From the sequence record PZ295659.1: 64,000 nt of DNA; one strand, written 5' to 3'. Shown here piece by piece: positions 2,949-58,424 of this stretch. The stretch is from a phage. How positions within the stretch are numbered: the stretch's first letter is position 1; the number at the start of each line of letters is the position of its first letter. The position numbers were made by a program, and so were the translations under genes. Under the pieces are notes generated by a model, which worked only from the letters and a program-made list of their open reading frames with translations, was not told the origin of the DNA and made no database searches.

Positions 2949-4762
2949 TGAAACAAAATATTAAAATTGGGAACGTCGTTGATGACGGACAAGGCGATTA
3001 CCTTCGTCGTGGTGGTGCAAAAATTAATGAAAACTTTGATGAGTTGTATTATGAATTAGGCGATGGCGAAGTTCCGTATTCCGCTGGTGCCTGGAAAACA
3101 TACCATTCTTCAGATGGACTTAATTTAGCTGCTGAATGGGGTAAATCATACGCAATTGATACCTCAACAGGGCGTGTTTCTATAAATTTACCTAAAGGAA
3201 CAGTGGAAGATTATAATAAAGTAATTAGAGCCCGTGATGTATTCGCCACATGGAATATTAACCCTGTAACATTAATTGCTGCCAGCGGTGATACTATTAA
3301 AGGTTCTTCTAGCCCAGTAGAAATCAATGTGCAGTTTTCAGACTTAGAATTAGTTTACTGTTCTCCTGGGCGCTGGGAATACGTTAAAAATAAACAAATA
3401 GACAAAATTACTAGTTCTGATATTAGTAGTGTAGCTCGTAAAGAATTTTTAGTCGAAGTTCAAGGTCAAACTGATTTTCTTGATGTATTTGGGCCTGTTT
3501 CTTATAATGTGAATAATATCCGTGTAAAACATCGTGGTAACGAATTATACTACGGTGATGTGTTCAGTGACAATAGTGACTTTGGTTCTCCAGGAGCTAA
3601 TCCTGGAGAAATCGTTGCATTAGACGGTAAAAACATTCGTTTAAGACAACCATGTAATATTGGCGACACCGTACAAATTGAAACCTTTTTGGACGGGATT
3701 ACACAATTACGCAGTTCTTATTCTCGCCGCCAAATACGTATTTTAGATTCGAAATTAACAACCCGTCCTTCCTTAGAAGGAAGTGTATATGTCGCTGATT
3801 TGTCAACTTTGAAATCTATTCCTTTTTCGGCATTTGGAGTTAATCCTTCAGAACCGGTCAATACTAATTCTTTAGAAGTTCGTTTTAATGGCATTCTTCA
3901 AGAATTAGCTGGTACTGTTGGTTTACCTATGTTCAGATGTGAAGGTGCTGATGCAGAAACTTCTACTGAGTGTTCAGCTTTAGGTGGGACTTGGGTTACA
4001 TCTAACACAGATTATTCTATTGAATATGATGATAACGATGCAACTATTGCACGTGCTTTAGTCTTTGACCGTAAGTTTGAAGACCAAGACATTATTGATA
4101 TTACATGGTTTAATAACGATTTAGGCACCTTATTAAGTATCGATGACATTTTAGATACAACTGATGAAAAGTATGTCGCACAAGGTGCAACCGTAAATGT
4201 GACCGGCGATGTGGCTTTGACCGATTTCAATAATATCGGATGGCCTAATGTAGAATCTGTTCCGGCATATAGCAGGGAATTCTCATCTATTGCAAATATT
4301 TTTAACACTATTTACCCTGTCGGTACTATTTACGAAAATGCAGTGAACCCTAATAACCCAGCCACGTATTTAGGATTTGGTTCTTGGAAATTATGGGGAC
4401 AAGGAAAAGTATTAGTTGGATGGAACGACGATATTAGCGATCCTAATTTTGCATTAAATAATAACGACCTTGATTCTAGCGGGAATCCTACACATACCGC
4501 CGGTGGAACAGTCGGAACAACGTCTAACACACTAACTAATTCTGATTTACCTCCTACTCAAACTGACGAGAAAGTTCTTATTTCCGATGAGAACGGTACA
4601 ATTATTATTGGTGGATGTCAATACGACCCTGATGCAGAAGGTCCTATATACACCAAATACCGTGAAGGCCACGCCACAACGAATAGTACACACGTACCGC
4701 CTCAAACCGTAAATAATATTCAACCGTCAATTACCGTATACCGTTGGGTAAGGATTGCATAA
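2948..4762 (+). CDS. 10: baseplate wedge protein gp10
   Basis: 604 aa (T4 gp10 602 aa); ATGA overlap with gp9 stop; synteny. Confidence 0.85.
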
Positions 4763-5421
4763 TGACCATACTTAATACTAAAGCGGGAGTAATATCCCGC
4801 GAAGCAGATTTTTTAGGATTTAGAAAAAATCCTACTCAAATTGATATTTTAAACAACCAAGGCGTAGGTTCTGTAACTATTTCTCAATTGGCAAAAGGAT
4901 TCTACGATGATAACGTAGAATCTGCAATAAACGATGTTCATAATATTGCTAGAGCAGATGTAGGAACAGTTACAATTAACACCTCAGGTGTATCTCCTGA
5001 AGGAACTTCACAGGTAGATTATTGGTCCTTTAGTGGAAGTGTAACTGACCCTAGTTTGCCCGATGGAAGCCCTGTTATTGTAAAAGTTTACGGACTTCCT
5101 GTTAATGCTACTGTAGGTATGACAGCCGACGAATTTGTTGTACAATTACGTACTACTCTCCGGAATGCGATTTCCGACCAATTGGCCATTGCAGAGTATA
5201 AAGATGACCCTACTGTTGGGACTAAATTACAAATAACATATTTAGATAACCAAAGACACGTACTCCCAACGTATTCCGCTTATGGTATCACGGTTTCTCA
5301 AGAAATAGTGTCTCAGGCTAAGTCCGGGTACGGCACTTGGAATTTACTAGGTGCGCAAACCCTTACTCTTGACAACCATAATTCACCTACAACCTTTTAT
5401 TATTTTGTGAGAACCGCATGA
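4762..5421 (+). CDS. 11: baseplate wedge protein gp11 (short tail fiber attachment)
   Basis: Start moved to the ATG overlapping the gp10 stop (TAATG), giving 219 aa as in T4 gp11; N-terminus [13 protein letters not shown] and C-terminus FVRTA match recalled T4 gp11. Confidence 0.85.
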
Positions 5422-6968
5422 GTAACAATACATATCAACACGTTTCGAACGAATCTGTATATGTTGAATTTGACCCTACCGGGTCAAATTTTGATAGTTC
5501 AATAACCAATGTCCAGGCGGCCTTAGCCTCAATTAGCGCATATGGTGTTAAAGGTGTTCCGGACGCAAGTGAAACAGAAAAAGGTGTAATTCAATTAGCG
5601 TCGGAACAAGAAGTTCTTGACGGTTTTAATAGTACTAAGGCCGTTACACCTGCCACATTAAATGCAAGACTTCAGTATCCGAATGCGTCAGAAACACAAT
5701 ACGGCGTAACTAAATATGCAACACAAGAGGAGGCCATTGCTGGCACTTTAGACACTGTTTCTATTACTCCGCTTAAATTAAACCAAACTATTGATAACAC
5801 GTTCTCTACTCGTTATTCAACAGAAACAACTAACGGTGTTATTAAAATTGCAACTCAAACCGCTGCACTTGCCGGGTCTGATGACACCACAGCAATGACT
5901 CCGCTTAAAACGCAGCAATTAGCAATAAAATTAATTTCTCAAATAGCTCCTAATAACGACCCGGCTTCAGAATCTATTACCGGTGTTGTGCGTTTAGCTA
6001 CGGTGGCTCAAACACGTCAAGGAACTCTTCGCGAAGGATATGCAATTTCCCCGTATACCTTTATGAATTCTGTTGCAACACAAGAATATAAAGGTGTTAT
6101 ACGTCTAGGAACACAAGCGGAAATTAATAGCAATTTGGGAGATGTTGCTGTAACAGGTGAAACGCTAAATGGTAGAGGAGCTACCGGTTCTATGCGTGGA
6201 GTCGTAAAATTAACGACTCAGGCTGGTATTGCCCCTGAAGGCGATAGCTCTGGAGCATTAGCATGGAACGCAGATGTAATTAATACACGCGGTGGACAAA
6301 CTATTAATGGTTCTTTAAATTTAGATCACCTCACAGCAAATGGAATTTGGTCGCGTGGCGGAATGTGGAAAAACGGTGACCAGCCAGTTGCAACAGAGAG
6401 ATATGCATCTGAACGTGTTCCTGTTGGAACAATTCAAATGTTCGCAGGTGATAGCGCTCCTCCAGGCTGGGTTTTATGTCATGGTGGGACCATTTCTGGA
6501 AACCAATTTCCGGACTATCGAAATGTGGTTGGAACAAGATTTGGTGGTGATTGGAATAATCCTGGAATTCCGGATATGCGCGGTCTTTTTGTTAGAGGAG
6601 CTGGCACAGGCAGCCATATTTTAAATCAACGAGGACAAGATGGTTACGGGAAGGATAGACTTGGTGTAGGATGTGACGGAATGCATGTTGGCGGTGTCCA
6701 AGCACAGCAAATGTCATATCATAAACACGCTGGTGGATGGGGCGAATATCAACGTCATGAGGCGCCGTTCGGAGCATCCGTATATCAAGGTTATTTGGGT
6801 ACTAGAAAATACTCTGATTGGGATAACGCATCATATTTCACAAATGACGGCTTCGAATTAGGTGGTCACCGCGACGCAACAGGCACTCTTAACCGTGAAG
6901 GACTTATCGGATATGAGACTCGTCCATGGAATATATCTTTAAATTATATTATTAAAGTCCATTACTAA
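5418..6968 (+). CDS. 12: short tail fiber protein gp12
   Basis: 516 aa; internal repeated GV-K-ATQ--A-AG units typical of the gp12 beta-structure; ATGA overlap with gp11. Confidence 0.85.
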
Positions 6969-45098: not shown

Positions 45099-45395
45099 TT
45101 ACATAAGAAGCAAACTTTCCACCGGAGTACCATCAACCGAAATTACTTTATCAAGGCGGAAAGAACGCCACTGACCTAACTTGGTGTCGAATGCTCGAAC
45201 TGATTCACGAGGTTCATAACGAACTTCTGTTGCTGGATTGTTATTTTCATATTTGACTTCAAGTTCATCGCGCGAAGCAAACATAGTGCGTACCTCGCCG
45301 TTAGCCTTTTCAAATACAACACAATGAACGCCTACAGATAGAATAGTTTTAATACGTTCACGAAGAACCATAGTTTCTTGTTCAGTTAAAATCAT
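45099..45395 (-). CDS. hypothetical protein (98 aa, 31.1-like)
   Basis: Start moved to the ATG 2 nt after the cd stop; the track start is a GTG inside cd. Confidence 0.5.
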   Translation of the reverse strand: MILTEQETMVLRERIKTILSVGVHCVVFEKANGEVRTMFASRDELEVKYENNNPATEVRYEPRESVRAFDTKLGQWRSFRLDKVISVDGTPVESLLLM

Positions 45396-45396
45396 A

Positions 45397-45978
45397 TTAT
45401 TCACCACAAAAGTTTCGGATTTGTTCCCAATTCAGAGAACGAAGATTATTACGAGAGTACTGAATTACTTCAATACCGGCTTGTTTTAGAATGTCTGCCC
45501 AATTTTCAGGAGATCTGTCATATAATTCTGCGTATACAACCTTTTTAATACCTGACTGCGTAATAGCTTTAGTGCAATCAGGACATGGAGAAAGCGTCGT
45601 ATATAACGTAGCACCTTCAATAGAATTACCTTTACGAGCTGCAAACAAAATTGCATTCAATTCTGCATGGATTTCATTATTAGCAGACCATGCACTATGA
45701 GCGGCCCGATGTTCTTTAGCCAAAACAAAATTATCTGCCCGTCCAAATGCTGTAGTGCCTTCTTTATGTCCAGCAACGATGACCGGGCTTGGTTTATTCT
45801 TCAACCAACCGTTTTCGGATGCATGTTCGCAACAGTTTGTACCACCTGAAGGAGAGCCATTATAACCTGTAGAAATAATGCGTCCATCTTTTTCAATGAC
45901 TGCGCCAACTTTCCATGAACAACATTTTGATTCTTGAGAAATCAGATATGCAATCTGAAGGTATGTGCTAGCTTTCAT
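45397..45978 (-). CDS. cd: dCMP deaminase
   Basis: 193 aa, same as T4 Cd; zinc-binding cytidine/deoxycytidylate deaminase motifs HAELNAI and PCPDC. Confidence 0.9.
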   Translation of the reverse strand: MKASTYLQIAYLISQESKCCSWKVGAVIEKDGRIISTGYNGSPSGGTNCCEHASENGWLKNKPSPVIVAGHKEGTTAFGRADNFVLAKEHRAAHSAWSANNEIHAELNAILFAARKGNSIEGATLYTTLSPCPDCTKAITQSGIKKVVYAELYDRSPENWADILKQAGIEVIQYSRNNLRSLNWEQIRNFCGE

Positions 45979-46970
45979 TATTGAACCTTATTAATATAAG
46001 TTAACAGCTCTTTAGTTTGTTCCCAACTGATGCACGCATCGGTAATGGAAACGCCATAGGACATATTATCAGAAATTTTTTGATTTCCTTCATGTAGGAA
46101 TGATTCTATCATAATTCCTTTGACCAAATCATTAGCTGCTAAATTTTTACCAATACCAATTTGATTGCTATAATGCCCATCAGCGTTTGCATGGCTACAG
46201 TCAACCATTACATAATGATTCAGACCTACTGCACTTGCTTTGTTAGAAGCTTCTTGAATATCAGAAGAATGATAGTTCGGGCCGTTGGTCCCGCCACGCA
46301 ATACGATATGCGTATTCTGATTACCTTCAGCTTCAACAATGCCTATAGTACCATCGACGTCCATACCCATATACCGATGAGGCCAGGCGGCACTATACAT
46401 CGCGTCTGTAGCTACTTTAATAGAACCATTGGTTGCGTTCTTGAAGCCTACGCACATCGGTAGACCTGAAGCAATTTCACGATGTGTCTGACTTTCAGTC
46501 GTACGGGCGCCAATAGCAACCCATGAGAAAATACCAGAAAGATACTTAATCGTGAATGGGTCTAATACTTCAGTTGCTAATGGAAGTCCCATACGTAGAA
46601 GTTTACGACACAATGTTCGTGCAACTATAAGACCGTGGTTCATATCAAAACTTCCGTCAAGATATGGATCATTTACAAGACCTTTCCAACCTACGGTAGT
46701 TCGAGGCTTTTCAAAATAAACGCGCATCACTAACAGAACATTAGGAAGACGAGTTTGAAGTTCAGCCAGACGTTTGCCGTATTCAACAGCAGCAATAGGG
46801 TCATGAATTGAACAAGGACCTACAACAATAAGTTTGCGTGGGTCTTCACCGTTCATAATCGAATTAACTTGTTCGCGATGAGAAGCCACTTGTGATGCGT
46901 AAGCTTCCGACAAAGGAATAATCTCAGCCAGTTCTTTTGGAGAAATAAGTTTTCTGACGATAGGTAACAT
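45978..46970 (-). CDS. 3-deoxy-D-arabino-heptulosonate-7-phosphate (DAHP) synthase, class I AroG/AroF/AroH-like
   Basis: 330 aa aligning along its length with E. coli AroG as recalled: KLIVVGPCSIHDP, MRVYFEKPRTTVGWKGL, SWVAIGARTTESQTHRE, GFKNATNGSIKVA, IVLRGG, MVDCSHAN, ESFLHEGNQ, SITDACISWE. Confidence 0.85.
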   Translation of the reverse strand: MLPIVRKLISPKELAEIIPLSEAYASQVASHREQVNSIMNGEDPRKLIVVGPCSIHDPIAAVEYGKRLAELQTRLPNVLLVMRVYFEKPRTTVGWKGLVNDPYLDGSFDMNHGLIVARTLCRKLLRMGLPLATEVLDPFTIKYLSGIFSWVAIGARTTESQTHREIASGLPMCVGFKNATNGSIKVATDAMYSAAWPHRYMGMDVDGTIGIVEAEGNQNTHIVLRGGTNGPNYHSSDIQEASNKASAVGLNHYVMVDCSHANADGHYSNQIGIGKNLAANDLVKGIMIESFLHEGNQKISDNMSYGVSITDACISWEQTKELLTYINKVQ

Positions 46971-47090
46971 AACAATCCTTAGGAGATATAAACAGATTCT
47001 GATTCAACAATACCTTTAACCGGATTAGACAGGCTAAGTTGGTAGTGCTCAGATTTATGACCATTCTCGATAGTAATGAGATAGCTCTAA

Positions 47091-47327
47091 TTATAGTGTT
47101 CCATATACTCGAGTTGCTTCAACAAGACCATCACTGCCTAATTTAAGATTAGTAATTTGGTCACCATCTTTAGGATTAACGATTATGAGAAAAGAACGTG
47201 GAGATTCTTGAATAACTCGTAATGTTGCATCCTGGAAACGTTCAGACACTTTATTGATGAGTGCTTGAGCGAATTCTTTTACTTTAATCTGAAATTCGTG
47301 TACTGTAATTGGATTTTCACTTAGCAT
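47091..47327 (-). CDS. hypothetical early protein (78 aa)
   Basis: ORF with an early promoter upstream; first gene of the transcript that continues into the DAHP synthase and cd. Confidence 0.45.
   Translation of the reverse strand: MLSENPITVHEFQIKVKEFAQALINKVSERFQDATLRVIQESPRSFLIIVNPKDGDQITNLKLGSDGLVEATRVYGTL

Positions 47328-48063: not shown

Positions 48064-48064
<1 letters not shown>
47873..48064 (-). CDS. hypothetical acidic protein (63 aa)
   Basis: ORF coupled to the pseT stop (ATGA-type overlap). Confidence 0.45.
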
Positions 48065-49150
<1,086 letters not shown>

Positions 49151-52534: not shown

Positions 52535-53713
52535 TTAGAAATATTTTTTGTATGAATTGATTACATTTTGGTCTACATCATTATCAATTTGTGCAACAAG
52601 ATAAGAACTGATTTCAACTTCCTGAGGAGCTGCTTGAACTAAATCAGAGTTCAGATATTCACGAATCCAAGGATAAGGATGTTTGGTCGGAGCATCAGTA
52701 ATTGGACACGGCAAACCACACTGTTTCATACGAGACACAGTCAAGTAATCAACAAAAGCACACATACTCTGTGTATTGATACCTGGACATGTACCGTCTT
52801 TAAAGAGATGTGCAGCCCATTCCTTCTCTTGTCTATTTACTTCCATAAAAATGTCAACTGCTTCTTGTTCACATTCTTTAACAATTTGAACCCACTCATC
52901 ACCATCAGTACCAGATTGAAGTTGACGGATAATGTACTGAGTACCCTTGAGGTGGAGTTGTTCGTCACGAGCAATGAACTTCATAATCTTTGCATTACCT
53001 TCCATAATTTCCATATTTTTATGGAAGTTGAAAGTACATGCAAATGATACGTAAAAACGAATAGCTTCTAAGGCGTTGATAACATGCAAACAGAGATAAA
53101 GAGACTTCATTAAATCACGCTTAGCAGCGGCTTCTTGCTTAATAGCACGTTCTAATTGAAGGTCTGCATTAATTGACGCTTTGGCTAGTTCCGTGAATTC
53201 TTTCTGGTTTTCCCAATGGCGAGTCTTGACTAGAACATCATCGTAATATTTACCTATTGATTCAGCTCGTTTCATGATTGCTTCGTCTAATACAATTTCA
53301 TCAAATACCTTAGATGGATCAGTATAAAGATTTCGCATAATATGAGTATACGAACGAGAGTGAATAGTTTCACTGAATGTCCATGTTGCAACCCACGTAT
53401 CTAATGAAGGGTCAGAAATCAGTGCCATAAGTACCGCAGATGGGGCCCTGCCTTGGATAGAATCTAATAATGATTGATATTTAAGATTGTTTGTAAAGAT
53501 GTCCTGTTGGAACTGAGGAAGCTTATTGAACTGCGCAGAGTCCAACATCAAGTTTACCTCTTCAGGACGCCAGAAAAATGATAATTGCTTTTCGGTTAAA
53601 TCTTCAAAAACTTTATGGCGTTGAATATCATAACGCGCAATACCAAGACCAGAACCAAAGAACATCGGTTCATTCAAAACATCGACTTGTTGTGTGTTAA
53701 AAACTGTACTCAT
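52535..53713 (-). CDS. nrdB: ribonucleotide reductase class Ia beta subunit
   Basis: 392 aa (T4 NrdB 388 aa), continuous with no intron; di-iron/radical site segments including YVSFACTFNFH. Confidence 0.9.
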   Translation of the reverse strand: MSTVFNTQQVDVLNEPMFFGSGLGIARYDIQRHKVFEDLTEKQLSFFWRPEEVNLMLDSAQFNKLPQFQQDIFTNNLKYQSLLDSIQGRAPSAVLMALISDPSLDTWVATWTFSETIHSRSYTHIMRNLYTDPSKVFDEIVLDEAIMKRAESIGKYYDDVLVKTRHWENQKEFTELAKASINADLQLERAIKQEAAAKRDLMKSLYLCLHVINALEAIRFYVSFACTFNFHKNMEIMEGNAKIMKFIARDEQLHLKGTQYIIRQLQSGTDGDEWVQIVKECEQEAVDIFMEVNRQEKEWAAHLFKDGTCPGINTQSMCAFVDYLTVSRMKQCGLPCPITDAPTKHPYPWIREYLNSDLVQAAPQEVEISSYLVAQIDNDVDQNVINSYKKYF

Positions 53714-53766: not shown

Positions 53767-56022
53767 TTAAAGCTTACAAGCAGAGCAATCTTCAGCTTTA
53801 GGTGTTTCTAATTCATAGTCATCTGTACCTGACCCATCACGAGTGTTATGATAGTAGAGGTTTTTTCCACCAAAGTACCAGAAGTAAAGCAGATCGTCAA
53901 GCATTACCGACATTGGCACTTTACCTTTCTCAAATACCGCAGGGTCATAATAAGTATTAGCAGAAGCAGATTGGCACACCCATTTCAACATGATAGCAAC
54001 TTGGGTCAAATAAGGTTTATTACCTTTCTTAGCAAGTTTCCACGCGTAGTCGTAAAGACTCATGTTATGTTCGATATTAGGAACAACCTGACGGAAGTTA
54101 CCTTCTTTAGATTCTTTAATACTTACCGGACCACGTGGAGGTTCGATACCGTTTGTAGAGTTTGATACTTGACTGCTTGACTCACAAGGCATGAGTGCAG
54201 ACAACGTCGAGTTACGAATTCCATGTTCTTTGAGTTCAGCTCGAAGTTCTTCCCAGTCACAGACGTAGTTCGGGGCTGCGATTTGGTCAATCTTTTTATT
54301 GTACCAGTCGATAGGTAATTCGCCTCTAGACCATTTAGTATCTGAATAATACTCGCAAGGTCCTTTTTCTTTGGCGAGTTTGATTGAAGCTTTAATAAGG
54401 CCATATTGCAATCTCTCGAACAATTCATGAGTCAAATCGTTAGCGTCTTCATATGAAGCAAAGTTAGAAGCTAACCATGCAGCATAGTTCGTCACACCGA
54501 CACCGAGATTTCGACGCTTTTTAGCTTTTAAAGCTTCTGGAACCGGATAATCTTGATAGTCTAACAGGTTATCAAGTGCACGTACTTGTACTTCAGCAAG
54601 TTCATTAATTTTATCTTGGTCTTGCCAATCAAATTTATCTAATACAAAAGCAGATAATGTGCATAAACCAATTTCAGCATCAGGACCATTCACATCATTA
54701 GTTGGAATAGCGATTTCACAACATAAGTTACTCTGACGAATTGGAGCTTTTTCACGAATAAACGGAGTGTAGTTATTCGTGTTATCAACAAACTGTGGAT
54801 AAATTCGAGCAGTGCCAGAACGTTCAGTCATGAACAATTCAAAGAGTTCTAGTGCTTTGATTCTTTTCTTTCTGATTGTTGGGTCTTTTTCAGCTTTCTC
54901 ATAAAGCTCACGGAATTTATCTTGATCTTCAAAGAACGAGTAGTATAGTTCGCCTGACATTTCGTGAGGGCTAAATAAAGTAATATAATCATTTTTACCA
55001 AGGCGTTCCATCATGAGGTCATTAATCTGAATTCCGTAGTCCATATGTCGAATACGGTTTTCATCCACGCCTTTGTTATTTTTCAGAACTAATAGGTTCT
55101 CTACTTCTAAGTGCCACATCGGATAATACGCTGTAGCAGCACCACCACGAATACCACCTTGAGAACAAGATTTTACTGCAGTTTGGAAATGTTTCCAGAA
55201 TGGAATAACACCAGTATGTCGAACTTCACCCATACCGATCTTAGAACCTTCTGCACGAAGCATACCAACGTTGATACCGATACCAGCTCGTTTAGAAATA
55301 TATTCAATAATTGATGCTGAAGTTTTGTTAATAGATTTTAACGAATCACCGGCTTCAATAACTACACAACTAGAGAACTGGCGAGTCGGAGTACGAGCAC
55401 CTGCCATAATTGGGGTTGGCAATGAAACTTGATGAGTAGAAACGGCATCATAAAAACGAATAATATGTTTCAAACGGTCATGAGTTTCGTCTTGATGTAA
55501 GGCCATACCGATAGCCATGATAGCAAACTGTGGAGTTTCATAAATCTTACCAGTTGTTTTATCTTTAACCAGGTATTTTTCTTTAAGCTGCATAGCACCA
55601 GCATAAGTCAGATCAAAATCTCGCTCATGTTTAATCCGAGAATCAAGATAAATGATTTCTTCTGCAGAATATCTAGACAACAACTCAGGATCATATTTGC
55701 CTTCATTAACACAATAAGAAATATGGTCGATAAAAGCAGGCGGTTCAAACTGCCCATATACATCTTTACGAAGTGCAAACATTAGCCCTTTGGCGGCGAC
55801 ATACTGATAATCAGGTTCTTCGACAGAAATCGAGTTAGCTGCAACTTTAATACAAATCTTCTGAATATCTTTGGTGCTCATCCCATCGACAAGATGGGTC
55901 TTAATTTCTTCGTATAATTCATATGGGTCAATTTGTGTTCCTTCACATTGCCAAGTTAAAACTTGAATAATTTTCTGTGCATCAAAATTTTGGGATACAC
56001 CACTGCTCTTAGTTACTTGCAT
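53767..56022 (-). CDS. nrdA: ribonucleotide reductase class Ia alpha subunit
   Basis: 751 aa (T4 NrdA 754 aa); ATP-cone N-terminus; active-site region SNLCCEI; C-terminal CxxC tail (CSACKL). Confidence 0.95.
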   Translation of the reverse strand: MQVTKSSGVSQNFDAQKIIQVLTWQCEGTQIDPYELYEEIKTHLVDGMSTKDIQKICIKVAANSISVEEPDYQYVAAKGLMFALRKDVYGQFEPPAFIDHISYCVNEGKYDPELLSRYSAEEIIYLDSRIKHERDFDLTYAGAMQLKEKYLVKDKTTGKIYETPQFAIMAIGMALHQDETHDRLKHIIRFYDAVSTHQVSLPTPIMAGARTPTRQFSSCVVIEAGDSLKSINKTSASIIEYISKRAGIGINVGMLRAEGSKIGMGEVRHTGVIPFWKHFQTAVKSCSQGGIRGGAATAYYPMWHLEVENLLVLKNNKGVDENRIRHMDYGIQINDLMMERLGKNDYITLFSPHEMSGELYYSFFEDQDKFRELYEKAEKDPTIRKKRIKALELFELFMTERSGTARIYPQFVDNTNNYTPFIREKAPIRQSNLCCEIAIPTNDVNGPDAEIGLCTLSAFVLDKFDWQDQDKINELAEVQVRALDNLLDYQDYPVPEALKAKKRRNLGVGVTNYAAWLASNFASYEDANDLTHELFERLQYGLIKASIKLAKEKGPCEYYSDTKWSRGELPIDWYNKKIDQIAAPNYVCDWEELRAELKEHGIRNSTLSALMPCESSSQVSNSTNGIEPPRGPVSIKESKEGNFRQVVPNIEHNMSLYDYAWKLAKKGNKPYLTQVAIMLKWVCQSASANTYYDPAVFEKGKVPMSVMLDDLLYFWYFGGKNLYYHNTRDGSGTDDYELETPKAEDCSACKL

Positions 56023-56365: not shown

Positions 56366-57226
56366 TTATACCGCCATTTTAGCTTTGATAGCTGGATGTG
56401 ATTCGTAATTTTTAAGAACGAAATCAGAATATGTCATCGTTCCAGTAACCCAGTCCATTTGGATTTTTGTAGGCCAATTCTCAAAATTACTAGGCCAATT
56501 AATTTCAAGAGAACATAACTCTTTAGGTTCACGACGAAGAACTTCTTTGCATTGTTCTACATGATTGCTGTAGATATGCGTGTTGCCGCCTGAGAACACT
56601 AAATCACCTGGGATAAGGTTACACATCTTCGCTACAATATGCGTCAAGGCAGCGTACGAGGCAATGTTGAACGGCAGGCCTAAGAAAACATCTACACTGC
56701 GTTGGTACCATTGTAAATCAAGATGTCCATTACGCACATTAAATTGATAGAACATATGACAAGGAGGAAGAGCCATTTGGTCAATTTCGGCCGGGTTCCA
56801 TGCAGAAACTATTTGACGACGATCATTAGGAAGAGCTTTAATACGGTCGATAGTTTTGACCAATTGGTCTACACCGCCGAAATCACGCCATTGCTTACCA
56901 TAAATAGGACCAAGTTCGCCACTATGATATCCAAGGTCTTTTGCCTGATTTTCATAGTTATCGTCCCAAATAGTTTTACCTTGAATAAGACTACCATGAG
57001 TACGAATACGCAAATCATTAACATTGGTAGAACCAGACATGAACCACAGCAACTCGGCAATACAAGCTTTCCATGCAAGCTTCTTGGTTGTTACTGCAGG
57101 AAATCCTTTAGTAAGGTCCCATCTCAATTTAGTTCCGAATAGAGCAATAGTGCCGGTACCTGTACGGTCGTCTGTTTCATAGCCATTTTCTAAGATAACT
57201 TTAATCAAATCTTGATATTGTTTCAT
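56366..57226 (-). CDS. td: thymidylate synthase
   Basis: 286 aa, same as T4 Td, continuous (no intron); catalytic region ALPPCHMFYQFNV and DLQWYQRSVD. Confidence 0.95.
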   Translation of the reverse strand: MKQYQDLIKVILENGYETDDRTGTGTIALFGTKLRWDLTKGFPAVTTKKLAWKACIAELLWFMSGSTNVNDLRIRTHGSLIQGKTIWDDNYENQAKDLGYHSGELGPIYGKQWRDFGGVDQLVKTIDRIKALPNDRRQIVSAWNPAEIDQMALPPCHMFYQFNVRNGHLDLQWYQRSVDVFLGLPFNIASYAALTHIVAKMCNLIPGDLVFSGGNTHIYSNHVEQCKEVLRREPKELCSLEINWPSNFENWPTKIQMDWVTGTMTYSDFVLKNYESHPAIKAKMAV

Positions 57227-57241
57227 TTAGCACCTATATAA

Positions 57242-58424
<1,183 letters not shown>

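Follow-up and report, generated by a model that had tools for sequence, protein, structure and literature searches.

A gene in the nucleotide-precursor cluster of a T4-like Mosigvirus encodes a class I-alpha DAHP synthase (DAHPS). In the reading that we consider likely, the gene is a long-resident accessory gene, and its product is a functional enzyme with a rebuilt inhibitor pocket, which is constitutively active and feeds the shikimate pathway of the host. The gene lies in the window, the 64,000-nucleotide stretch of phage DNA that was analysed (PZ295659.1). An earlier note on this DNA had proposed a full-length class I DAHP synthase on the minus strand at 45978–46970, and profile searches bear this out, with Pfam and NCBIfam scores above the cutoffs. 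The open reading frame starts with ATG, and all seven motifs quoted in the earlier note are present in its translation. The gene and its translation signals are located as follows:

45978–46970, minus strand: DAHP synthase gene, 330 amino acids plus stop, class I-alpha, AroF/G/H family (open reading frame, Pfam, NCBIfam, PHROG, AlphaFold)
46976–46980, minus strand: Shine-Dalgarno sequence AAGGA, 5 nt 5' of the ATG at 46970 (direct sequence reading)
46953–46970, minus strand: truncated DAHPS N-terminus, residues 1–6 (alignments, upstream stop)
45976–45980, minus strand: TAATG, in which the DAHPS stop (45980–45978) overlaps the start of cd (45978–45976)

An in-frame TGA is located 12 codons 5' of the DAHPS ATG, and no ATG, GTG or TTG codon lies between them. 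Therefore, the short N-terminus of the protein is real.

The match to the Pfam family DAHP_synth_1 (PF00793; E=5.5e-75, 252 bits at a cutoff of 25.5) covers residues 36–323 of the protein and positions 8–269 of the 270-position profile. The NCBIfam equivalog TIGR00034 (aroFGH) reached 427 bits, with its cutoff at 173, and PRK12755 reached 455 bits, with its cutoff at 343. The isoenzyme-specific NCBIfam models remained below their cutoffs, with 364 of 568 bits for AroG (NF006723) and 387 of 463 bits for AroH (NF009396). The match to PHROG 5045 extends over the full length of the protein (E=5e-182). Among solved structures, E. coli AroF is the best match (6agm; E=8e-105, residues 7–327 aligned to AroF 16–344), and the identities to E. 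coli AroF, AroG and AroH are 50, 47 and 44%, respectively. The phage protein shares the family, fold and length class of these three enzymes, and has kept their metal, phosphoenolpyruvate (PEP) and erythrose-4-phosphate (E4P) residues as well as their hairpin. The AlphaFold prediction (pLDDT 91.4, pTM 0.91) superposes on AroG and on N. meningitidis DAH7PS, and Foldseek returned a TM score of 0.96 and an rmsd of 1.5 Å to 4hso, 8e0u and 1kfl. The extra β6a/6b hairpin of the (β/α)8 barrel is formed in the model by residues 198–203 and 209–214. The metal ligands are encoded as follows:

46038–46814, minus strand: metal-ligand codon span, with C53 at 46814–46812, H260 at 46193–46191, E289 at 46106–46104 and D311 at 46040–46038

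These residues correspond to AroG Cys61, His268, Glu302 and Asp326, and show no variation among the 127 aligned sequences. The metal-binding cysteine and histidine that the earlier note had singled out, C53 and H260, are thus intact. The PEP and E4P residues R83, K88, P89, R90, T91, A155, R156, K177 and R225, which are encoded within this span as well, are the same as in E. coli AroG, AroF and AroH. Six of them (R83, K88, A155, R156, K177 and R225) are equivalent to the PEP-binding residues R92, K97, A164, R165, K186 and R234 of AroG, and the KPRTT motif for the E4P phosphate is kept at positions 88–92. At the metal, PEP and E4P positions, none of the 29 phage-clade proteins and none of the 98 bacterial proteins deviates; the bacterial set consists of the best-scoring hits rather than a random draw from the family. 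The dN/dS ratio of 0.16–0.20 relative to four other genera indicates purifying selection. We infer that the phage enzyme would convert PEP and E4P to DAHP.

The positions that are conserved in both groups of proteins but differ between phages and bacteria number five in 328 aligned columns (Q151K, D155G, S180P, F209Y and T223A in AroG numbering). All five are in or beside the inhibitor pocket, the codons of which are:

46329–46550, minus strand: rebuilt allosteric-pocket codons, with I141 at 46550–46548, K142 at 46547–46545 and G146 at 46535–46533
within 46329–46550, minus strand: rebuilt allosteric-pocket codons, continued, with P171 at 46460–46458, Y200 at 46373–46371 and A214 at 46331–46329

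The phage residues I141, K142, G146, P171, Y200 and A214 are equivalent to AroG P150, Q151, D155, S180, F209 and T223. The last five equivalents, which are replaced relative to AroF, AroG and AroH, are constant inside the phage clade (28–29 of 29 proteins), and the canonical pocket residues are present in 88–98 of the 98 best-scoring bacterial homologues. AroG P150 is changed to Ile in 28 of the 29 phage-clade proteins. Position 150 is naturally variable, with Gly in AroH and Val in nine of the 98 bacterial proteins, and F209Y is a conservative change.

Experimentally documented feedback-resistance positions account for three of the five differing sites (hypergeometric P=6.5e-4). AroG variants P150L, S180F and F209A/S and variants of Gln151 are feedback-resistant, Ser180/181 binds the main chain of the inhibitor, and D155 buttresses the site (PMC9529685). 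The same positions that were altered in feedback-resistant AroG for metabolic engineering are changed in the phage enzyme (I141, K142, P171 and Y200), with the catalytic residues untouched. Compared with engineered or selected AroG, the phage amino acids are different, are combined with an N-terminal deletion, and have become fixed in at least six phage lineages. The deletion concerns a segment of about nine N-terminal residues, which includes the inhibitor-contacting Asp6/Asp7 of AroG (Asn7/Asn8 of AroF) and is missing in 29 of 29 phage-clade proteins. Only 52 residues precede the metal-binding cysteine in the phage DAHPS, versus at least 58 in 98 of the 98 bacterial homologues. Alignments with AroF and AroG are thus in agreement with the earlier observation that the N-terminus is shortened in the region of allosteric inhibition. 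Given the rebuilt inhibitor pocket and the lost N-terminal segment, constitutive activity of the enzyme is most likely. The bypass of Phe/Tyr/Trp feedback, predicted from the altered pocket and the missing segment, is the best-supported part of the earlier note, and the case for it is stronger than could be seen then, since the whole inhibitor pocket has been rebuilt.

The DAHPS of Aeromonas phage HJ05, an independent phage copy, has kept the catalytic residues and carries P150A, Q151H, D155P, S180P and F209V. This unrelated enzyme shows parallel pocket changes, and HJ05 alone was usable for a comparison with independent phage copies. A gut 'Bacteriophage sp.' scaffold was rejected as a further case of convergence, since it is unverified and of a different subtype. 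The contig 'Acinetobacter phage MD-2021a' was rejected because it looks bacterial (cobS neighbours) and has canonical residues.

Pocket residues that are replaced and yet invariant would fit a locked-open structure and a new ligand specificity equally well. It is unlikely, in our assessment, that the pocket has been re-tuned, so that K142, G146, P171, Y200 and A214 bind another effector, such as a nucleotide or an infection-specific metabolite, and the enzyme is still allosteric. The five diverged positions are conserved rather than drifting in the phage clade, the model still has the β-hairpin that is part of the regulatory site, and Lys in place of the inhibitor-contacting Gln would suit an anionic ligand. 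However, every phage-clade member lacks the N-terminal segment with which the partner subunit completes the site, and the residues of HJ05 are different (H, P, P and V), which resembles loss more than a common new specificity. We know of no candidate ligand. We give only a slender chance to a rebuilt pocket that binds a nucleotide- or folate-type effector and couples shikimate entry or E4P drain to the DNA-precursor programme. If true, the pocket would represent a natural viral allosteric re-wiring of a central metabolic enzyme.

It is similarly improbable that the gene encodes an ordinary feedback-regulated DAHPS, providing an extra dose in place of the host enzyme that is not re-synthesised after host shut-off. 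The phage protein is closest to the Tyr-sensitive AroF, and has kept both an AroF-like Gly (position 211 in AroG) and the Pro at position 148 of AroF. Nevertheless, Q151, S180 and the N-terminal contacts, which are required for inhibition and near-invariant in the 98 bacterial homologues, are replaced or deleted.

The surroundings of the gene contain the following features:

45397–45978, minus strand: cd, dCMP deaminase, the downstream gene, the start of which overlaps the DAHPS stop
46971–47090, minus strand: 120-nt spacer from the cd.2 stop to the DAHPS start, within a 1113-nt cassette
47091–47327, minus strand: cd.2 homologue (DUF7320, phrog_1504), the upstream neighbour of DAHPS
47383–47355, minus strand: promoter-like site TTTACA-17-TATGAT, 5' of the cd.2 homologue

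The overlapping stop and start codons place DAHPS directly upstream of cd, as the earlier note had stated, and their TAATG arrangement is compatible with translational coupling of the two genes. The early-cluster neighbours that it had named, pseT, nrdB, nrdA, td and frd, were identified by Pfam, all on the minus strand, and DAHPS is thus part of the nucleotide-precursor cluster frd-td-nrdAB...cd. A scan of the 120-nt spacer found neither a promoter-like nor a terminator-like site, and a promoter or terminator of the gene's own in the spacer was therefore rejected. In shuffled sequence, promoter-like sites occur at least as often as in the DAHPS region. DAHPS is probably expressed from minus-strand transcripts common to pseT and cd. 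We infer the timing of its expression, and the single early transcript of the earlier note is a tentative reading, drawn only from the common orientation of the genes, the lack of any terminator-like site and the stop–start overlap.

In the constitutively active enzyme that we favour, an unchanged catalytic centre would be combined with a rebuilt pocket for Phe/Tyr/Trp inhibition and with the loss of the N-terminal segment that closes this pocket. Carbon would still enter the shikimate pathway of the infected cell at any level of aromatic amino acids. Since the gene is transcribed from phage DNA, it would also escape transcriptional control by host TyrR/TrpR. The later steps to chorismate would be carried out by surviving host enzymes. 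We reason that deregulation would be useful chiefly in the presence of ample aromatic amino acids, with the host DAHP synthases shut down. Therefore, products other than amino acids, for example pABA/folate or quinones, may be favoured. An argument via folate is speculative, and the earlier note was inexact in its wording, since folate is not consumed in the Td/Frd cycle, which regenerates tetrahydrofolate. The residue analysis predicts a naturally feedback-insensitive DAHPS, the loss of which would be felt only under defined nutritional conditions. If this is confirmed, a lytic coliphage overrides the main control valve of aromatic/chorismate metabolism, and metabolic engineering could draw on the naturally evolved deregulated DAHPS scaffolds of phages. 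Conceptually, the gene resembles auxiliary metabolic genes for flux control, such as those of the cyanophage pentose-phosphate pathway and Calvin cycle or of phage NAD salvage, but the pathway is another one. In each case, a host-derived enzyme at a flux-controlling step is kept by a lytic phage and expressed along with genes for nucleotide metabolism.

We regard it as very unlikely that the benefit lies in the removal of the substrate, with the irreversible use of E4P pulling transketolase (F6P + G3P → E4P + Xu5P) towards pentose phosphates. These would supply nucleotides and the ribulose-5-P-derived DNA arabinose of many such phages. The location in the nucleotide-precursor cluster agrees with this proposal, most DAHPS-positive genera have an arabinose-5-P isomerase pathway that draws on ribulose-5-P, and the pentose-phosphate genes of cyanophages are a precedent. 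However, the isomerase is present without DAHPS in RB69, about 57 Acinetobacter phages and Yersinia phages, is missing in approximately 22 or more DAHPS-positive Klebsiella phages, and one PEP would be wasted per turn. The arabinosylation papers, which describe the diversion of ribulose-5-P via arabinose-5-P isomerase in RB69-type phages, do not mention DAHPS. A strict coupling of DAHPS to arabinosylated-cytosine DNA was rejected, since the isomerase occurs alone in RB69 and in Acinetobacter and Yersinia phages, and DAHPS occurs alone in Klebsiella Marfavirus-type phages.

A role in counter-defence, in which the enzyme replenishes a chorismate-derived or PEP/E4P-linked metabolite depleted by host immunity, is highly improbable. 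The next gene downstream of DAHPS in HJ05 belongs to the Acb2/Tad1 family of sponges (PF24729, E=8.5e-17), the T-even pseT-rnlA region already contains counter-defence genes, and DAHPS is accessory with a patchy distribution. Against this, the evidence comes from one neighbouring gene in one phage, and the literature search gave no defence system aimed at the shikimate pathway; to our knowledge, no defence system targets this aromatic pathway. It is scarcely credible that the protein is not a DAHPS in function but a KDO8P-synthase-like enzyme acting on arabinose-5-P or a decaying passenger: KDO8P synthase belongs to the same Pfam family PF00793, and one genome paper loosely ties the domain to lipopolysaccharide synthesis, but the NCBIfam matches are to DAHP-synthase models only, KPRTTVGWKG is a DAHPS-type motif and the metal-binding cysteine is intact, so KdsA was rejected, and decay is excluded by the dN/dS ratio and the invariant catalytic residues across 29 sequences.

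The gene itself is already known from GenBank annotations, PHROGs and several genome papers, and the novelty implied by the earlier note does not hold. Annotations of the same gene (at least 99% nucleotide identity) are found in about 140 Mosigvirus records, 213 phage records carry DAHPS, and PHROG 5045 already has the category of auxiliary metabolic gene. Papers mention it for Mosigvirus and Kanagawavirus as an auxiliary metabolic gene of unknown function. A full-text literature search on phage DAHPS returned annotation-level mentions only; no report was found in which a phage DAHP synthase had been assayed, knocked out or measured in its expression.

The slot between cd.2 and cd is occupied by DAHPS in six or more lineages of the Straboviridae, namely Mosigvirus, Kanagawavirus, Marfavirus, Winklervirus, Bragavirus and a metagenomic T4-like contig. 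The PHROG 5045 orthologues of Mosigvirus PhAPEC2, HY126 and phiC120, Kanagawavirus PEi20 and KLB31, Marfavirus F48, Winklervirus CHI14 and Bragavirus PM2 have amino acid identities of 59–99%, the same gene order cd.2–DAHPS–cd and the same pocket signature. The copy in the window differs from that of PhAPEC2 at four variable residues, and CHI14 and PM2 have one or two additional small open reading frames between DAHPS and cd. The phage proteins form one clade in 100 of 100 bootstraps, and are only 50–55% identical to any bacterial enzyme. A grouping with enterobacterial AroF/G/H, which the earlier note had proposed to check by phylogeny, is contradicted by the tree, in which the phage proteins form a separate old clade that is not nested among the enterobacterial enzymes. 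The divergence of phage DAHPS parallels that of cd and pseT. In several genera of the Straboviridae, DAHPS has probably occupied its place between cd.2 and cd for a long time. The 44–50% identity to AroF/G/H and the separate clade with 100% bootstrap support led us to reject a recent acquisition of the gene from the E. coli host.

DAHPS is an accessory gene, absent from T4, RB69, JS98 and one Mosigvirus strain, mar007P3. The plaque-forming relatives RB69, JS98 and mar007P3 can dispense with it, and any benefit must therefore be conditional. Mosigvirus relatives with and without DAHPS occur naturally, which allows their comparison. Strain mar007P3 lacks a cassette of 1113 nt, which includes the 120-nt spacer and is flanked by an imperfect direct repeat:

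47082–47094, minus strand: imperfect 13-nt direct repeat, left copy, ATAATTAGAGCTA (manual alignment)
45969–45981, minus strand: imperfect 13-nt direct repeat, right copy, ATAATGAAAGCTA, 1113 nt from the left copy

The repeat is present in one copy in mar007P3. It was identified by manual alignment, and was not reported by the repeat finder because the exact seeds are too short. The corresponding interval of T4 contains small open reading frames only (cd.4, cd.3, cd.2 and the 112-residue cd.1), as the earlier note had stated. T4 cd.1 was rejected as a remnant of DAHPS, since the two have no similarity (E=12). In Serratia phage CHI14, a homologue of T4 cd.1 (E=1e-10) is located 3' of DAHPS, which places the position of DAHPS between cd.2 and cd.1.

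The minus-strand ORF at 45978..46970 starts with ATG, comprises 330 codons and encodes a DAHP synthase (DAHPS). This annotation, proposed in an earlier note from sequence inspection, is secure. All seven motifs quoted there were found in the translation, and a profile search aligned the protein full-length with Pfam DAHP_synth_1 (E=5.5e-75, residues 36-323 on profile positions 8-269 of 270). The protein scores 427 bits against the NCBIfam aroFGH equivalog (curated cutoff 173) and 455 bits against the subfamily PRK12755 (cutoff 343), and lies below both the AroG- and the AroH-specific NCBIfam cutoffs. It is 50, 47 and 44% identical to AroF, AroG and AroH of E. coli, respectively, and among solved structures E. 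coli Tyr-sensitive AroF is its nearest by sequence (6agm, E=8e-105). The AlphaFold model, calculated with 68 homologues as input, is a confident one (pLDDT 91.4, pTM 0.91) and superposes on both E. coli AroG and the DAH7PS of N. meningitidis with TM 0.96 and rmsd 1.5 Å. Family scores and motifs rule out KDO8P-synthase-like activity.

The catalytic residues are the same as in AroG, whose numbering is used unless stated otherwise. The metal ligands C61, H268, E302 and D326 correspond to window C53, H260, E289 and D311, and the PEP ligands R92, K97, A164, R165, K186 and R234 and the KPRT motif are retained. Loss of metal-binding or catalytic residues, which the note had named as evidence against its annotation, was not seen, since these residues are kept in 29/29 proteins of the phage clade, as they are in the 98/98 best-scoring bacterial homologues. 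A scan of 328 aligned columns for positions at least 90% conserved in each group and different between the groups identified just five sites, Q151K, D155G, S180P, F209Y and T223A (window K142, G146, P171, Y200 and A214); 96 columns are conserved and identical in both groups. In addition, P150 is replaced by Ile in 28 of the 29 phage proteins. Feedback-resistant AroG variants include P150L, S180F, F209A/S, V221A and substitutions of Gln151; Ser180 (AroF Ser181) contacts the inhibitor main chain, and the salt bridge of Asp155 supports the inhibitor site (PMC9529685). Thr223 belongs to the same hairpin strand as Val221, two residues apart. Of the six positions conserved in bacteria at which feedback-resistance mutations are documented, three are among the five diverged sites (hypergeometric P=6.5e-4); the list of positions was set before the scan was run. 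The shorter N-terminus noticed previously was also borne out: 48-52 residues precede the metal-binding Cys in phage proteins versus at least 58 in each bacterial homologue, and the segment bearing AroG Asp6/Asp7 (AroF Asn7/Asn8) is absent. The N-terminus of the window protein is not longer than annotated, because an in-frame TGA is located 12 codons 5' of the ATG with zero canonical start codons between them. The five diverged sites and the absent segment support well, at the level of sequence, the idea that the enzyme bypasses feedback. Most strongly supported is a reading in which the DAHP synthase is catalytically normal but would no longer respond to Phe, Tyr or Trp, with both activity and insensitivity predicted.

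Aeromonas phage HJ05 (L012, OQ594355.1), a 79-kb, non-T4-like phage, encodes a distant DAHPS of 387 residues, annotated as hypothetical (3899-5062), which is about 37% identical to the T-even clade and likewise to bacterial enzymes. It keeps all catalytic residues and carries P150A, Q151H, D155P, S180P, F209V, S211A and V221S; these substitutions indicate an independent case of inhibitor-pocket residue loss, parallel to the T-even clade. In one of two main rivals to the feedback-insensitive reading, the pocket would instead be re-tuned for a new effector, as the new residues are invariant across the phage clade and not drifting. However, HJ05 has other residues at these positions, and the N-terminal lid of the pocket is absent. 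The aroF of the 'Acinetobacter phage MD-2021a' contig (L014, CAKLQH020000056.1) keeps all canonical residues; the contig looks bacterial, with aroF beside cobS and ribazole-phosphatase genes.

A role for a deregulated DAHPS can be proposed. The enzyme would be made from phage transcripts, and transcription from phage DNA would also let it escape TyrR/TrpR repression. With it, the shikimate pathway's entry valve would stay open through infection, and host enzymes would carry out the remaining steps to chorismate. It can be argued that the benefit of such an enzyme would be greatest with the host enzymes off and aromatic amino acids plentiful, which would point to non-amino-acid products of chorismate (pABA/folate, quinones). 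Folate, favored in the note, is a possible beneficial product; the wording that the Td/Frd cycle consumes it was inexact, since the cycle recycles the cofactor. As weak background to these ideas, Phe, Tyr and Trp make up 4.1, 4.0 and 1.4%, respectively, of the predicted proteins of the 38%-GC window, taken from a partly spurious ORF set. In the other main rival, DAHPS may be an erythrose-4-phosphate sink drawing flux to pentose phosphates, as Mosigvirus and Serratia relatives build arabinosylated 5-hydroxycytosine from ribulose-5-phosphate (PMC13326640, PMC6024577, PMC8056088). However, the co-occurrence of DAHPS and arabinose-5-phosphate isomerase is not strict: the isomerase without DAHPS is present in RB69, in about 57 Acinetobacter phages and in Yersinia phages, and DAHPS without the isomerase in Klebsiella F48-type phages. 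The sole hint of a suggested counter-defence role is the next gene downstream of HJ05 DAHPS (5196-5546), which encodes a hairpin-domain protein (PF24729, E=8.5e-17) of the Acb2/Tad1 family of anti-CBASS/Thoeris sponges. The value of the deregulated-enzyme reading is its specific prediction, testable with existing natural DAHPS-plus and -minus strains. The isomerase (arabinosyl-5-hydroxycytosine pathway; RB69, L016, NC_004928.1, 24047-30598) occurs in 276 phage records, which take in almost all DAHPS-bearing Mosigvirus records. It is therefore very probable that the cytosine in the DNA of the window phage is arabinosylated; the pathway region lies outside the 64,000-nt window.

The minus-strand gene order is frd, td, nrdA, nrdB, denA, rnlA, alc, pseT, homologues of cd.3 and cd.2, DAHPS, cd, gp31. 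The cluster neighbours named in the note (pseT, nrdAB, td and frd) were verified by Pfam, all on the minus strand:

57586-58173, minus strand, frd (Pfam)
56366-57226, minus strand, td (Pfam)
53767-56022, minus strand, nrdA (Pfam)
52535-53713, minus strand, nrdB (Pfam)
48064-48963, minus strand, pseT (Pfam)
45397-45978, minus strand, cd, adjoining DAHPS downstream

The sequence AAGGA is positioned 5 nt 5' of the DAHPS start codon. Co-transcription of DAHPS and cd is plausible from sequence signals, since the DAHPS stop and cd start overlap (TAATG, 45980-45976), no terminator-like site was found on the minus strand from pseT to gp31, and no promoter-like site was found in the 120-nt spacer 5' of DAHPS. 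A promoter-like site upstream of cd.2 (47383-47355) is of a kind no commoner in the region than in shuffled sequence. The sole ORF between cd and gp31 is a 31.1 homologue (45099-45407, phrog_1086) overlapping the cd end, whereas T4, PEi20 and JS98 additionally have a 31.2 ORF there.

A tblastn search found the DAHPS protein in 213 phage records, the Edwardsiella PEi20/PEi26 and Enterobacter Entb_45 copies being about 77% identical, those of Klebsiella F48-type, Serratia CHI14 and Erwinia phages about 67%, and those of Proteus PM2/phiP4-3 and of Shigella SdyM_006 about 59%. As cd homologues of at least 60% identity occur in about 1,020 records, roughly one fifth of T-even-like genomes carry DAHPS. 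It occupies the cd.2-cd slot in each lineage examined (PhAPEC2, PEi20, F48, CHI14, PM2 and a 29-kb metagenomic T4-like contig with just 57% identity). T4 lacks DAHPS, in line with the note, and has the 112-residue cd.1 in this slot; cd.1 was rejected as a DAHPS relative because the sequences are unrelated. In CHI14 (L005), a cd.1 homologue (3998-4339; 30% identity, E=1e-10) is kept between DAHPS and cd, so DAHPS is additional to cd.1, placed between it and cd.2, and does not replace it. Proteus phage PM2 (L006, 1606-2322 and 3957-4516) has two added small ORFs between DAHPS and cd, and just upstream it has a homing endonuclease. Small genes come and go in the pseT-cd interval, a turnover hot spot where DAHPS keeps a fixed position.

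In a neighbour-joining tree of 127 sequences, the 29 phage-type proteins form a single clade (100/100 bootstraps), separate from enterobacterial AroG/AroF/AroH, with which the note had considered a grouping. The nearest bacterial proteins are 51-55% identical and come from very diverse phyla. Recent capture from E. coli was rejected, given the separate clade and an enterobacterial AroF no nearer than other bacterial enzymes. Divergence between genera (DAHPS 76/67/67/59% identity) runs parallel to what is seen in the neighbouring cd (82/79/70/64%) and in pseT (58/67/57/45%), and dN/dS against other genera is 0.16-0.20. Together with the clade, these values indicate that DAHPS is an old, vertically maintained, selected phage resident. 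The selection signal, motifs and family scores rule out gene decay.

The gene is accessory: it is present in about 140 of 153 records at least 90% identical across the pseT-gp31 stretch, and cd.2 directly abuts cd in JS98 (Dhakavirus), RB69 and vB_Eco_mar007P3 (both Mosigvirus). The 1113-nt cassette of spacer and ORF is flanked by an imperfect 13-nt direct repeat (45969-45981 and 47082-47094), with copies ATAATTAGAGCTA and ATAATGAAAGCTA matching at 11 of 13 positions. In vB_Eco_mar007P3 (L011, LR027383.1, ~2385), exactly one copy is present and cd.2 overlaps cd. The cassette absence resembles the outcome of a precise deletion (or insertion) via microhomology including the cd start.

The novelty implied by the note does not hold. 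A nucleotide search matched 146 phage records, 128 at ≥99% identity and almost all Mosigvirus (including PhAPEC2, O157 typing phages 3/6/13, phiC120, HY126 and APCEc01), and in the majority the annotation reads phospho-2-dehydro-3-deoxyheptonate aldolase, DAHP synthase or aroF. Among PHROGs the protein hits number 5045 (PHROG 5045, E=5e-182), whose class is 'moron, auxiliary metabolic gene and host takeover'. Sources in which the gene is already known include Olsen et al. and the phiC120 genome paper, which records the domain (PMC8022965); a 2025 paper on Kanagawavirus KLB31 flags the gene and hypothesizes aromatic amino-acid supply (PMC11845039). A full-text literature search found no enzymology, expression study or knockout of a phage DAHP synthase. 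Public data also show labelling problems, as with the 'Acinetobacter phage MD-2021a' contig above: the representative of protein cluster P0001 (98% identical) is named '3-deoxy-7-phosphoheptulonate synthase [Escherichia coli]' yet lies on a 170,875-bp, phage-sized contig. The best nucleotide match, in Escherichia phage vB_EcoM_G53 (MK327943.1, 133134-134181), is annotated merely 'similar to hypothetical protein' and spans 1048 nt in two pieces versus 993 nt; this copy may contain a ~55-nt insertion or disruption.
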